This document shows, in pieces, positions 58,643-63,649 of a DNA stretch of 64,000 nt. Made by a program: the position numbers and the translations under genes. The notes under the pieces were generated by a model, which saw nothing but the letters and a program-made list of their open reading frames with translations, was not told where the DNA came from and ran no database searches. Source of the DNA: Escherichia coli (GTDB taxonomy: Bacteria; Pseudomonadota; Gammaproteobacteria; Enterobacterales; Enterobacteriaceae); NCBI RefSeq assembly GCF_017348835.2, contig NZ_CP071375.1. The stretch is one strand, 5' to 3'. The stretch's first letter is position 1; each line of letters opens with the position of its first letter.

Positions 58643-59962
58643 TTAACCGTGTTTATTTTTCAGTTCAAAGCGTGGTGATACCAGACCATACAGTGTCCAA
58701 CCGAGGAAGGTCACGATAGAACCGTACAGCATGGCTTCTTCCCCGGATGAGTACAGCGCATAGAAACTGTACATCGCGCCAACAAAAGCAACAAAGTTTG
58801 CAACTTTCGCTTTTGAGGGGGGCACATTAGCGACCTTTTGAATAATGACTAATGCCGCCATTGACAGAATATACGGAATGATATTGGTCACCACGGCCAG
58901 GTTAACCAGCACGTTGAACTGACTGTTTAGCGACGGGCTAATCGTCATCAGCGCCAACCCGCTCTGGATAATCACAATGGTCAACATTCCCTGCACCGGT
59001 GCATCCACTTTGGTTACACGGGAGAAAATTTTAGGGAAGTAGCCTTCATCAGATGAAGATTTAAACACCTGGGCAATGGTGAACTGCCAGCCAAGTAGCG
59101 AACCGCAGCAGGACATCACCATCAGCGCCATAATGACTTTACCCACTTCCGGCGTGAACATCTGCGCGAAGGCCAGACCAAATGGTGCCGTTGAATTTGC
59201 CAGCTCCATATTTGGCACAATCCCGGCAATCACGTTGGTGGAGACGATATAAATCACCGCCGCACCTAACGTACCGCCGAGTACCGCGATTGGCACATTA
59301 CGTTCCGGGTTTTCCACTATATCAGTATTTGCACACGCAGACTCCAGACCAAGAAAAGCCCACAGCGTCATAGCGATGGAAGAACCTACCGCACTGAAGA
59401 ACGGTGCATGATGCGGATTCCAGGAATCAACGTACAGCGTCGGGCTAAACCAGAACCAGCCAATAATGCACAGACCGACGACCGGAATAATGACCCCCCA
59501 CACGGTAATGCTACTGATTTGCCCGGTAATGCGCGCACCACCAAAGTTAGCCACGGTACAAATCCACAGCACCCCGATGGTCGCAAGACCAATCTGCACT
59601 GGCGACAAACTCGCGCCGAGCAGTTCGGTGCCGTAACCAACCGCCGAAATAGCAATCGCGACGTTAGCAATCAGCAGTGAGACGCCGTAGGTATAGTTCG
59701 CCATAAAGTTACCGGATTTACCGAAAGCATACTCGGCATAACCGCCCATACCGCCTGATTTACGGCTGAACATACCGCATTTTGCGAATGCCCATGCCAG
59801 TGCCATTGAGCCTACGGCTGTCACCAGCCAGGAGATAATTGAGATTGTCCCGACTTCGGCAAGCTTTGTCGGCAGCATGATGATACCGGAGCCCATCATG
59901 TTGACCATCGTCAGTATGGTTAACTGAACGACGCCCATTTTGTTCGATTTAGCCTGACTCAT
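58643..59962 (-). CDS. potE: Putrescine/ornithine antiporter (APC family)
   Basis: 439-aa 12-TM transporter matching PotE. Confidence 0.95.
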   Translation of the reverse strand: MSQAKSNKMGVVQLTILTMVNMMGSGIIMLPTKLAEVGTISIISWLVTAVGSMALAWAFAKCGMFSRKSGGMGGYAEYAFGKSGNFMANYTYGVSLLIANVAIAISAVGYGTELLGASLSPVQIGLATIGVLWICTVANFGGARITGQISSITVWGVIIPVVGLCIIGWFWFSPTLYVDSWNPHHAPFFSAVGSSIAMTLWAFLGLESACANTDIVENPERNVPIAVLGGTLGAAVIYIVSTNVIAGIVPNMELANSTAPFGLAFAQMFTPEVGKVIMALMVMSCCGSLLGWQFTIAQVFKSSSDEGYFPKIFSRVTKVDAPVQGMLTIVIIQSGLALMTISPSLNSQFNVLVNLAVVTNIIPYILSMAALVIIQKVANVPPSKAKVANFVAFVGAMYSFYALYSSGEEAMLYGSIVTFLGWTLYGLVSPRFELKNKHG

Positions 59963-62157
59963 AATTTTTCCCCTTTCAACAGGGTGCTTTGCGCATCACG
60001 AGGCTTGATGACATAGCACCAAACTTGCTTACGACCATCATGTTCTTCGATATAGACACCCTGCAGCTCCGGTGCAAAACCTGGCAGCAGGTTGATCCCT
60101 TCTTCCAGAGCGCTGAAGTAACGCAGAACAGCACCACCCCAGATTTCACCCGGAACAACACACAGCACACCCGGAGGATAAGGAAGCGCACCTTCGGCAG
60201 CGATACGGCCTTCTGCATCCGGCAGACGAACCAGTTCCACTTCACCGCGTAAATAGGCGTAGTTGGCTTCTTGCGGATTCATGCTGACGCGTGGGAAGTG
60301 CTCCTTACGGAACATCTCTTTTTGCAGTTGTTTCACGTTGTGGCGGGCATACAAATCATGCATTTCCTGACACAACTGACGCAGGGTATAACCGGCGTAG
60401 CGCTCTTCATGCTGTTTGTAGATGGAAGGTAGCACTTCTGCTAATGGCGCGTCGGACTCAAGCAGTTTTTCGAAGCGTACCAGCAGGGCAACAAGTTGCT
60501 GAAGTTTGGCCATATCTTCTGCCGGAGTCAGCAGGAAGAGGATGGAGTTAAGATCGCATTTTTCCGGCACTACGCCATTTTCGCGCAGGAAGTTAGCAAG
60601 AATCGTCGCGGGTACACCGAACGCTTCATATTCGCCGTTACGTGCATCAATACCTGGGGTTGTCAGCAACAGTTTGCATGGATCGACAAAGTATTGATTC
60701 TCTGCATAGCCTTCAAAAGAATGCCAGTGTTCCCCTGGTACAAACTGGAAGAAGCGCAGATCAACCGCAATTTGCGCTGTTTCATACGACTGCCAGGGTT
60801 TACCATCCACCAGTTCAGGTACGAACGGACGAATATGCTGACAGTTATCGAGGATCAGTTTGCGGGCATTAATGCCATTTACCACACAATCCATCCACAT
60901 ATTACGACCGCTGACACCTTCATGCATTTTGGCGTTGATATCCAGTGCGGCAAACAGCGGATAGAACGGGCTGGTGGAGGCGTGCATCATAAAGGCGTTG
61001 TTCATGCGTTTGTGCGGTACATAACGCTGTTGCCCTTTGATGTGGCTGTCTTTTTTATGAATTTGTGAAGTCTGAGAAAAACCAGCCTGTTGTTTATGCA
61101 CAGATTGCGTAACCAGAATACCCGGATCGTTCTCATTAAGTTCCAGTAGCAGCGGCGAACAGTCCGCCATCATCGGAATAAACTGTTCATAGCCGACCCA
61201 TGCTGAGTCAAACAGGATGTAGTCACACAGATGACCAATTTTATCCACCACCTGGCGGGCGTTATAAATCGTACCGTCGTAGGTGCCTAACTGAATCACA
61301 GCGAGGCGGAAAGGACGAGCCTCTTTTGCCCGCTGCGGTGCGACTTCCGCGATCAGCTCACGCAGGTAACTTTCTTCAAAACAGTGCGCATCAATGCCAC
61401 CGATAAAGCCATACGGGTTACGTGCCGTTTCCAGATAAACCGGTGTTGCACCAGCCTGTAGCAACGCTCCGTGGTGGTTAGATTTGTGGTTATTGCGATC
61501 AAACAGCACCAGATCACCCGGTGTTAGCAGGGCGTTTAAAACCACTTTGTTAGAAGATGAAGTGCCATTTAGAACGAAGTATGTTTTATCTGCATTAAAC
61601 ACTTTTGCCGCATGTTGCTGTGCAATGCATGGCGCGCCTTCGTGAATCAGCAGATCGCCCATTGCCACATCCGCGTTGCATAAGTCGGAACGGAACAGCG
61701 TTTCTCCGAAGTACTCCACGAACTGATTCCCTGCCGGATGACGACGGAAAAACTCACCTCCCTGATGACCCGGGCAGTCAAAAGCGCTATTGCCCTGATT
61801 GACATAATCGACCAGTGCGCGGAAGAAGGGCGGGCGCAGTTGCGTTTCATAATGGCTGGCAGCGGTTTCTAACTGACGTCCATAAAACTCTTTCCGTGAT
61901 TCGCAATGCTCGAAGACACCAGAAATACGTGGCAGATATTCTGCTGGTACACGTTCTTCATTTTCCGTTGCAATAAAAACAGGAATACCATAGCCAGTAG
62001 CGTCTATTTCATCGAGTTTTCCACGTTCAACATCACTGACTGATAAAATAATGGCGGCAACGTCAATATAATTACTTTCGTCTATATTCACGCATGCACG
62101 ATGAGTGGAAAAACAATCCGGGCAAGAACGACTAACGGCAATTTTTAATTCTGACAT
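59959..62157 (-). CDS. speF: Inducible ornithine decarboxylase
   Basis: PLP fold-III decarboxylase; start taken at MSELKIAV (732 aa). Confidence 0.93.
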   Translation of the reverse strand: MSELKIAVSRSCPDCFSTHRACVNIDESNYIDVAAIILSVSDVERGKLDEIDATGYGIPVFIATENEERVPAEYLPRISGVFEHCESRKEFYGRQLETAASHYETQLRPPFFRALVDYVNQGNSAFDCPGHQGGEFFRRHPAGNQFVEYFGETLFRSDLCNADVAMGDLLIHEGAPCIAQQHAAKVFNADKTYFVLNGTSSSNKVVLNALLTPGDLVLFDRNNHKSNHHGALLQAGATPVYLETARNPYGFIGGIDAHCFEESYLRELIAEVAPQRAKEARPFRLAVIQLGTYDGTIYNARQVVDKIGHLCDYILFDSAWVGYEQFIPMMADCSPLLLELNENDPGILVTQSVHKQQAGFSQTSQIHKKDSHIKGQQRYVPHKRMNNAFMMHASTSPFYPLFAALDINAKMHEGVSGRNMWMDCVVNGINARKLILDNCQHIRPFVPELVDGKPWQSYETAQIAVDLRFFQFVPGEHWHSFEGYAENQYFVDPCKLLLTTPGIDARNGEYEAFGVPATILANFLRENGVVPEKCDLNSILFLLTPAEDMAKLQQLVALLVRFEKLLESDAPLAEVLPSIYKQHEERYAGYTLRQLCQEMHDLYARHNVKQLQKEMFRKEHFPRVSMNPQEANYAYLRGEVELVRLPDAEGRIAAEGALPYPPGVLCVVPGEIWGGAVLRYFSALEEGINLLPGFAPELQGVYIEEHDGRKQVWCYVIKPRDAQSTLLKGEKL

Positions 62158-62309
62158 TTTGTTCATCTCTTTATTTCAGGTAATAGCAGGTCCTCAATTT
62201 CTCAAAGGAGAAATCGATCACGCCGGAAAAAAAGCAAAGCTCCACCGCTGATAAATAAATCAGTAGTTTGCTTTTTGCAGATGCAATAACCCAGACCAGC
62301 CCGGTAACT

Positions 62310-62490
62310 GGCTATACTCGTCATACTTCAAGTTGCATGTGCTGCGTCTGCGTTCGCTCACCCCAGTCACTTACTCATGTAAGCTCCTGGGGATTCACTC
62401 GCTTGTCGCCTTCCTGCAACTCGAATTATTTAGAGTATATACTCGTCATACTTCAAGTTGCATATGCTGCGACTCGAATTATGTAGAGTT
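62310..62490. repeat. ERIC (enterobacterial repetitive intergenic consensus / IRU) element with an adjacent core-deleted partial copy
   Basis: atgtaagctcctggggattcac (62377-62398) and cgctcaccccagtcacttac (62355-62374) match the ERIC core by recall; end segments 62314-62346 and 62419-62435 are repeated directly at 62439-62488. Confidence 0.6.
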
Positions 62491-62592
62491 TAAAAGGGTT
62501 AGCAGTATATGAGCACCGAGGGATACAGGTATTAACCTGTAATGCTTAAAGTCAGGGAGACCTGTACGCTGGGGTGCCCTTTAGTCAGAAGA

Positions 62593-62697
62593 CTAGCGGG
62601 CATTAAAGAAATGAAAGTCAAAACTATTACGATGGGCAAACTTCATGATATGGGTTGTCCGCCTTATATGAGGCATTAAGCGGTTATTATTTTCCAT
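62593..62697 (-). CDS. speFL: speFL leader peptide (ornithine-sensing arrest peptide), 34 codons
   Basis: Reverse-strand ATG at 62697 to TAG at 62593 translates to MENNNRLMPHIRRTTHIMKFAHRNSFDFHFFNAR; too short for the ORF track. Confidence 0.75.
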   Translation of the reverse strand: MENNNRLMPHIRRTTHIMKFAHRNSFDFHFFNAR

Positions 62698-62893
62698 TTA
62701 CCTTTACCTCTTGCTGTGTCAGTTGAAGGTAGAGTTATTCTATCCATGAAATGGCTATAATCTGTGAAGAAGATCAACAAAAAACGATCATACCCCAGAT
62801 AATAAATCATTAATTATGAATAGCGCCATATTAGACGCTGTTTTGTTATTTAAATGTTGTAATTTTGTGTTTTATATTTGCGTTAAGAAATTA

Positions 62894-62926
62894 AACCTGC
62901 CAAATAATAATATTTGGTGCAGGTTT
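62894..62926 (-). terminator. Possible terminator hairpin downstream of kdpE
   Basis: aaacctgc...gcaggttt imperfect stem in an AT-rich region. Confidence 0.35.
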
Positions 62927-62971
62927 AATAATAAATTAATCACTATTTAAGCGAATTTATTGAATAACAAT

Positions 62972-63649
62972 TCAAAGCATAAACCGATACCCAATACCGG
63001 TTTCAGTAATGAAATGGCGGGGGCGAGCGGGATCCTGTTCCAGTTTTTGTCGCAGATGTCCCATATAAATACGCAAATAATGACTGTGTTCGACCGCGTT
63101 TGGCCCCCACACCTGGTTAAGGAGTTGGCGCTGGGGGAGTACTTTTCCGGCGTTGTTGAGCAGCACTGCCAGCAGGCGAAACTCAATCGGGGTGAGGTGC
63201 ACCTCTTCCTCACCCCGGTGAATCACGCGGGCGGCTAAATCGACGGTAACATCGGAAAATTTCACTACCGGATCGGGCGCGGCAGTGGCTGAATGGCGGC
63301 GTAATGCGACGCGCAGACGGGCCTGCAATTCGCCAATGCCAAACGGCTTACTCAGATAATCATCCGCTCCGGCATCCAGCGCGGCGATTTTGTCGCTCTC
63401 TTCGCTGCGTGCGGAAAGCACTATCACCGGCACCGCGCTCCACTGGCGCAGGTCGCGGATAAACTCAATCCCATCACCATCGGGCAGGCCGAGATCGAGA
63501 ATAATCAAATCTGGCTTACGGGTTGCCGCTTCCAGCAAGCCGCGTTGCAGCGTTTCGGCCTCAAAGACGCGCATACCGTCGCCCTCCAGCGCCGTGCGCA
63601 GAAAGCGACGAATAGCCTGTTCATCTTCAACAATCAGAACGTTTGTCAC
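62972..63649 (-). CDS. kdpE: Response regulator KdpE (OmpR family)
   Basis: 225 aa; receiver domain (phospho-accepting Asp in LIILDLGLPD) and winged-helix output domain. Confidence 0.95.
   Translation of the reverse strand: MTNVLIVEDEQAIRRFLRTALEGDGMRVFEAETLQRGLLEAATRKPDLIILDLGLPDGDGIEFIRDLRQWSAVPVIVLSARSEESDKIAALDAGADDYLSKPFGIGELQARLRVALRRHSATAAPDPVVKFSDVTVDLAARVIHRGEEEVHLTPIEFRLLAVLLNNAGKVLPQRQLLNQVWGPNAVEHSHYLRIYMGHLRQKLEQDPARPRHFITETGIGYRFML

Follow-up and report, generated by a model that had tools for sequence, protein, structure and literature searches.

An old short and a young full-length ERIC unit in the speFL-speF leader of Escherichia coli

Ornithine- and Rho-dependent control of speF, the gene for inducible ornithine decarboxylase, has been demonstrated with the ERIC-free speFL-speF spacer of Escherichia coli K-12, which is 257 nt long. 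In the stretch of E. coli DNA analysed here (64,000 nucleotides of contig NZ_CP071375.1, referred to as the window), the corresponding spacer carries two adjacent ERIC units, a full-length one (F) and a short one that consists of arms only (S). The locus raises the questions of which unit came first, how the pair arose, and whether the additional RNA interferes with the regulation of the gene. An earlier note on this DNA had interpreted S as a tandem partial copy of F, and had suggested that the element may shape the structure of the leader RNA.

Two ERIC units in the speFL-speF spacer

The genes of the locus lie on the minus strand. speFL (62593..62697; MENNNRLMPHIRRTTHIMKFAHRNSFDFHFFNAR), a leader ORF of 34 codons that senses ornithine and is recognised from the ORF list, the RefSeq annotation and the literature, precedes speF (59959..62157), with potE (58643-59962) downstream of the latter; both are known from the ORF list and the RefSeq annotation of an identical sequence. 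kdpE (62972-63649) is present in the ORF list and in the RefSeq annotation of E. coli PE164. The PE164 region is 100% identical to the window, and speF (start at 62157), speFL and kdpE are annotated there at the same positions on the minus strand; because of this annotation, F and S are placed in the speFL-speF spacer, where the earlier note had also located them. From the stop codon of speFL to the AUG of speF the spacer measures 435 nt, and in the leader RNA, which corresponds to the minus strand, S comes 100 nt after the speFL stop, F follows S, and 155 nt separate F from the AUG of speF. A 44-aa hypothetical protein (62676-62810, minus strand), which overlaps the start of speFL by 22 nt, is annotated by RefSeq in genomes of the window type and is absent from the K-12 feature table. 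On the non-transcribed plus strand, ORFs of 72 and 59 aa (62268-62486 and 62333-62512) cross the ERIC units; they are unannotated in the RefSeq PE164 sequence and are probably artefacts of the repeats.

F (62313..62439) is an imperfect palindrome of 127 nt, in which a core is enclosed by arms of 25 nt with 80% complementarity. The sequence of the ERIC1R primer matches exactly at 62377-62398 (plus strand) and that of ERIC2 with one mismatch at 62355-62376 (minus strand), the two sites making up the core inverted repeat (62355..62398) that is absent from S; shuffled sequences gave no match to either primer. The primer sequences were confirmed against the literature, in which 246 papers give the two together. 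The recognition of an ERIC by its classical primer sites in the earlier note is borne out, and its interval (62310-62490) was right to within 2-3 nt. In complete E. coli genomes, megablast detects the F interval (62313-62440, query positions 214-341) with 97-99% identity at 5 places per genome in the median and at 10 at most. Located between speFL and speF on the same strand, F is intergenic and lies in a transcribed region, as is described for ERIC; its transcription as a part of the leader is suggested by the minus-strand location and, by analogy, by the Salmonella promoter upstream of the uORF. The increments of 125 and 53 nt between alleles of the site equal an element plus TA, in agreement with TA termini and TA target duplication, the exact TA breakpoint being ambiguous because the arms are near-identical. 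The Rfam model V_AS5, an ERIC-like Vibrio RNA, matches F over its full length with 46.3 bits, which is below the gathering threshold of 96. Mobility of F is represented by presence/absence polymorphism only, and we know of no transposase that acts on ERIC.

F fits every testable defining feature of ERIC. It shares the 127-bp imperfect palindrome and both primer sites with the ERIC family (described in 1991; reviewed in PMC2229807, PMC3184786 and PMC10969869); both are multicopy, intergenic yet transcribed, flanked by TA and form a long RNA hairpin, with no essential difference between them. F and S belong to a well-known kind of small mobile repeat of enteric bacteria. An ERIC at this leader is unmentioned in the speFL preprint and in the orf34 paper. 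Below-threshold matches to V_AS5, to isrH and, spuriously, to rli43 were all that a search of 61900-63000 against Rfam returned; a speF-leader family was not among them. Wilson and Sharp (2006) are said to have catalogued the ERIC loci of E. coli, and their catalogue may list the speFL-speF locus in O157:H7 or CFT073.

S (62438..62492, minus strand; 53 nt plus the shared TA) is recognised by direct repeats, by its hairpin and by its occurrence on its own. Two direct repeats relate it to F: 62313-62349 corresponds to 62438-62474 (37 nt, 95% identity), and 62414-62439 to 62467-62492 (26 nt, 88% identity), which agrees with the earlier observation that the flanking arms recur next door without the core. 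The units have one TA in common (62438-62439), and S lies 5' of F on the RNA. As in the short variants of ERIC, both arms are present in S and the core is missing. The yehL-yehK intergenic region (ATCC 25922, M16807) contains an arms-only element with the same central junction; in ATCC 25922 (L099, 1201-1253) both of its arms are of the 3'-arm type, which makes the palindrome nearly perfect. Positions 159-216 of the Rfam model of isrH from Salmonella align end to end with S (26.4 bits, threshold 45); this match and that to V_AS5 reflect ERIC-derived sequence inside the models, not family membership. With these two extra loci (yehL-yehK and the isrH model), S appears from sequence comparison as an instance of a recurring short ERIC form, not as a local accident.

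According to the abstract of Wilson and Sharp (2006), shorter ERICs reportedly come from internal deletion; our own literature search on short ERICs and internal deletion found nothing useful. The speF locus differs from the internally deleted variants in that the short unit abuts a full unit via the common TA, and the pair acts as a small expandable array. A passage of PMC10969869 cites Zo (2011) for the reductive divergence of ERIC.

Allelic states and relative age of the units

The comparison of the spacer across strains proposed in the earlier note, performed by allele-specific searches of 5,426 complete E. coli genomes and an alignment of 17 fetched loci, reveals five states at one site: empty, S, S+F, F and S+S+F. 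The S-only allele, with a spacer of 309-310 nt, is found in about 3,290 genomes (about 61%; O55:H7 RM12579 is an example), and the empty allele of the K-12 type, with a spacer of 257 nt, in about 1,700. The S+F allele (434-435 nt) is present in 32 genomes (the window and 31 others; PE164 and 14EC033 are examples of S+F strains), while the F-only (381 nt) and S+S+F (487 nt) alleles occur in one genome each, NCTC9112 and DCE7, respectively. F is carried by 34 of the 5,426 genomes (0.6%), all among the roughly 3,346 genomes of the window type. Subtraction of the ERIC units from the window spacer leaves exactly 257 nt, the same length as in K-12. About 375 genomes have a megablast match to neither the window-type nor the K-12-type leader, possibly owing to loss of the locus, disruption by an IS element or a third haplotype; one match adjoins an IS1 transposase (H29).

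The two rarest alleles retain traces of their formation. The F-only allele has a hybrid 5' arm, in which the start of S is joined to the end of the F arm, whereas the S+S+F allele contains a duplicated interval of 53 nt and has private variants in common with an S+F allele of the L010 type. Both are explained by misalignment between the two 5' arms, the presumed mechanism. In one group of loci, S, F and S+F are all found on flanks that are nearly identical, and in another group the same is true of S, S+F and S+S+F.

The window type and the K-12 type represent two deep haplotypes. In the comparison of 61558-62697 (speFL, the leader and the first 600 nt of speF) with K-12 (L003), the identity amounts to 85.7% for speFL, 83.8% for the spacer and 84.8% for the first 600 nt of speF, and SpeFL differs at residues 5 and 7 (N/S and L/T). 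The identity of the window type to E. albertii and to the divergent Escherichia E69 is 89-92%. About 1,705 genomes belong to the K-12 type. Loss of the element from K-12 by precise excision is rejected because the K-12 type is more distant from the window type than E. albertii is, the whole leader and the 5' part of speF being only about 84-85% identical. The empty site of K-12 is similar in sequence to that of Citrobacter; the K-12 type constitutes a distinct deep haplotype with an ancestral empty TA site common with Citrobacter, and looks introgressed or very old. The filled site (CCCTTT-TA-[S]-TA-TAGCC) compared with the empty K-12 site (CCCTTG-TA-TTATC) is consistent with TA target duplication; TA flanks are a described property of ERIC MITEs.

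The distribution and the variation of the units establish their order. In a scan of one genome per species, which identified 82 loci by the speFL sensor motif, E. albertii and E69 have a diverged arms-only hairpin of 51-53 nt at exactly the E. coli site, without F. In six S+F alleles, F has no variable sites among 125, S has 7 among 55, and the flanks have 8 among 255 (Fisher P = 0.0002 and 0.008). S is older than F: the former is an old resident, the latter a young newcomer. Since S alone is common and occupies the same site in E. albertii and E69, and F is rare and invariant, F was added beside a pre-existing S. It would have joined at the TA that ends S, presumably by transposition, in a minority lineage of E. 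coli.

The reading of S as a tandem partial duplicate of an adjacent full ERIC that later lost its core in place reverses this order. The direct adjacency of the units and the 88-95% identity of their arms speak for such a duplication, and the GCAG direct repeats that flank the core could mediate its deletion; yet a derived copy is hard to reconcile with S alone being the majority allele and occurring without F in E. albertii and E69, with the recurrence of the same arms-only junction at yehL-yehK and in the Salmonella isrH model, and with F being invariant and S polymorphic. This origin of S, already largely refuted, is very improbable. S+F is present on at least three flank backgrounds, so a single recent gain of F needs later recombination; the alternative is an older polymorphism with recurrent loss. 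On this reading, S+F would be ancestral in the window-type haplotype, and the common S-only allele would result from repeated deletion between the two 3' arms, which are 125 nt apart. The 37-nt direct repeats make such a deletion mechanistically easy, each of the diverged backgrounds with S+F has S-only relatives, and two S-only alleles (L011 and L012) carry the CACATG of the F 3' arm rather than the CATAGG of S on the same background, an arm variant that is better explained by older polymorphism with recurrent loss. However, F is devoid of variation in the very alleles in which S and the flanks vary, which favours a single gain with later recombination; moreover, E. albertii and E69 possess only S, and no more than about one in a hundred window-type genomes (34 of about 3,346) carries F. 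An ancestral S+F array is accordingly an improbable explanation, and the late addition of F to an old S is preferred.

Predicted folding of the leader RNA

Thermodynamic predictions on RNAs of 400-640 nt indicate that each unit forms a hairpin of its own. S alone is predicted to fold with -18.5 kcal/mol (z -5.2) and F alone with -52.9 kcal/mol (z -9.1), the complementary strand of F reaching -43.2 kcal/mol; the predicted value for S+F, -71.7 kcal/mol, nearly equals that of both units added up. For the core helix CCCCAG:CUGGGG the predicted probability is 0.99, and in the ensemble of the window allele the helices of S and F have probabilities of at least 0.98. Pairing of the S 5' arm with the F 3' arm, considered as an alternative, has an ensemble probability of 0. 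When the whole leader of the S, F or S+F allele is folded, the units form separate hairpins and the remaining structure is unchanged. The insertion site lies in a multiloop that, in the minimum free energy (MFE) structures of these three alleles, is closed by pairing of UAACCC (62497-62502) with GGGUUA; the latter belongs to the 3' flank of the units (62287..62312, minus strand), which consists of a small hairpin (GCCAGUUACCGGGCUGGU) and then GGGUUA. The same architecture surrounds the empty site of K-12. In the MFE structure of the S+S+F allele, arms pair between units and a part of the flanking structure differs.

Two further predicted elements concern the regulation of the gene. A segment within speFL (62604..62615, minus strand, about nt 82-93 of the ORF) pairs with the speF Shine-Dalgarno (SD) region (62163..62173, minus strand, positions -16 to -6) with a predicted probability of about 1.0. 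This predicted long-range helix matches the inhibitory structure of Salmonella that sequesters the speF ribosome-binding site, and which is opened there by translation of the uORF. The four alleles that bear ERIC (S, F, S+F and S+S+F) do not differ in the predicted accessibility of the speF SD. A predicted hairpin (GCCC...GGGC; 62576..62601, minus strand, as mapped from the fold), which includes the stop codon of speFL and lies upstream of both units on the RNA, corresponds to the described pause/termination hairpin.

Folding of the leader with and without the element, another proposal of the earlier note, lends no support to its suggestion that the element shapes the leader RNA: both units are predicted to fold by themselves, the architecture around the K-12 empty site is the same as in the S, F and S+F alleles, and the accessibility of the SD stays the same in every allele with ERIC. 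As a whole, the earlier interpretation stands as regards the ERIC, its core-less neighbour and their location in the leader, and is unsupported as regards the copy origin and, by the evidence of folding, the shaping of the RNA. A quantitative effect of the ERIC units on the mRNA may still exist, as the computation leaves room for it.

Insulated passenger or part of the regulation

In both E. coli and Salmonella, termination is placed about 20 nt beyond the stop codon of the uORF, just after a hairpin of which the uORF's 3' end is part; the prematurely terminated RNA of Salmonella is 157 nt long, counted from its start site, which lies 516 nt upstream of speF. As termination takes place just past the uORF, the ERIC site lies downstream of the attenuator and would be transcribed mainly in the induced state. 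A scan detected no terminator-like sites in 62100-62980 and no promoter-like sites in the ERIC units or on the minus strand; ERIC as a source of a terminator or an internal promoter is accordingly rejected. For regulation in K-12, ERIC is dispensable.

The S+F array is most readily understood as a structurally insulated and presumably neutral passenger of the speF leader that leaves the known regulation unchanged; we assign this reading a probability of roughly 0.7. S would have inserted at a TA in an Escherichia ancestor, within the first 100 nt of the speFL-speF leader, a part that tolerates indels, and the young F would have joined it later. When Rho termination after speFL is suppressed, S and F would be transcribed within the 5' UTR of speF-potE, and each unit would fold co-transcriptionally into its own hairpin, bringing the ends of the insertion together. 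Because an insertion that folds on itself holds its two ends close to each other, the pairing across the spacer on which the leader relies would be undisturbed; the long-range pairing of speFL with the speF SD and the conserved 3' 155 nt of the leader would stay intact. At the level of DNA, the repeated arms would act as direct repeats, whose misalignment would give rise to the alleles with F only and with S+S+F. At most, the units are expected to have quantitative effects, on the processing or stability of the mRNA or on the timing of leader folding.

ERIC insertions are also present in the leaders of other genera. The spacer measures 242-259 nt in most Enterobacteriaceae of the 82-locus scan. 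Citrobacter L059 and L086 have a full ERIC at one common site (position 59, within a hairpin loop), and Kluyvera has full ERICs at two sites, position 38 (L022 and L093) and position 82 (L049, K. ascorbata). These insertions are flanked by TA, add between 124 and 126 nt to the spacer of relatives with an empty site, and have the same orientation as in E. coli; they are independent of the E. coli ones and fall in the same leader zone. The five insertion events (S and F in Escherichia, one in Citrobacter, two in Kluyvera) all have one orientation, which is not significant (P about 0.06). Expanded spacers of 375-379 nt, with about 120 nt extra, are found in Salmonella enterica arizonae/diarizonae (L054 and L091), where the extra sequence lies about 64-190 nt after the speFL stop, and in Citrobacter freundii M-21 (L040); no similarity to ERIC was detected in them. 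Since transcription in S. Typhimurium starts 516 nt upstream of speF, the Salmonella model leader would likewise be of the long form. In addition, a contig labelled as a Collinsella sp. MAG (L087) contains speFL and a 257-nt spacer of the E. coli K-12 type, and most likely represents E. coli DNA that was wrongly binned with the MAG.

The recurrence of insertions in the same leader zone of three genera raises the possibility that the ERIC hairpins are functional parts of the leader that tune speF-potE expression, the allele series representing natural expression variants. Tuning could proceed via cleavage sites for RNase E, G or III, via stabilisation of the 5' UTR, or via a longer interval before closure of the anti-SD helix. 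All five events have the orientation with the better RNA fold (-52.9 vs -43.2 kcal/mol), and the S hairpin of E. albertii and E69 is better preserved than would be expected if the E. coli sequence had decayed at random (P = 0.007, 0.026 and 0.066); the common orientation and the retention of the hairpin are hints of selection acting on the RNA. The speF leader of Salmonella is already a target of RNase G, and the orientation-dependent RNase E effects of ERIC in Yersinia provide a precedent. Nevertheless, K-12 and most Enterobacteriaceae, with spacers of 242-259 nt, dispense with ERIC and retain full regulation, F is confined to 0.6% of the E. coli genomes, the predicted folds are insulated, and the shared orientation falls short of significance. 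A functional role of the hairpins is hence unlikely. A still broader proposal, which we find rather doubtful, counts S and F of Escherichia, the Citrobacter insertion, the two of Kluyvera and the non-ERIC inserts of about 120 nt in Salmonella and C. freundii together: across Enterobacteriaceae, self-folding MITEs would land repeatedly and in a specific orientation in the first 100 nt of the spacer, and the resulting arrays could tune speF-potE expression. If it were true, tuning might operate through processing of the 5' UTR by RNase E/G or through the time that passes before the anti-SD helix closes, and the unstable series of 0, S, S+F, F and S+S+F would be a contingency-like expression polymorphism. 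The insulated passenger remains the preferred reading.

Related elements in other bacteria differ in position or in ancestry. The ERICs of Yersinia mRNAs (De Gregorio et al. 2005) are, as PMC2229807, PMC3184786 and PMC10969869 describe them, likewise co-transcribed and hairpin-forming; located between cistrons or at 3' ends, they act on the upstream transcript and change its stability via RNase E in an orientation-dependent manner. In contrast, the E. coli units lie in a 5' leader, downstream of a Rho attenuator, and are known here from sequence and folds. The Correia/NEMIS elements of Neisseria are similar in being MITE hairpins within transcribed mRNA leaders, but they belong to an unrelated sequence family, and their cleavage by RNase III has been demonstrated (PMC10969869).

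The speFL leader serves as a model of how a nascent peptide senses a metabolite and how this sensing is coupled to Rho attenuation, and functional work on it has all been performed with the ERIC-free leader of K-12 or with that of Salmonella. About 61% of E. coli genomes have a 53-nt hairpin in the speF leader, and a few have 180-230 nt of extra structured RNA; these alleles sit on a haplotype that is about 16% divergent from K-12 and has two different residues in SpeFL. If the variants alter expression, the results obtained in K-12 would not be directly transferable to most strains; if they are neutral, the locus would provide a clean natural demonstration that self-folding insertions are tolerated in a leader dependent on long-range pairing. 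For the biology of ERIC, the locus offers a dated example, in which an old S was joined by a young F, and the array changes by misalignment of the arms.
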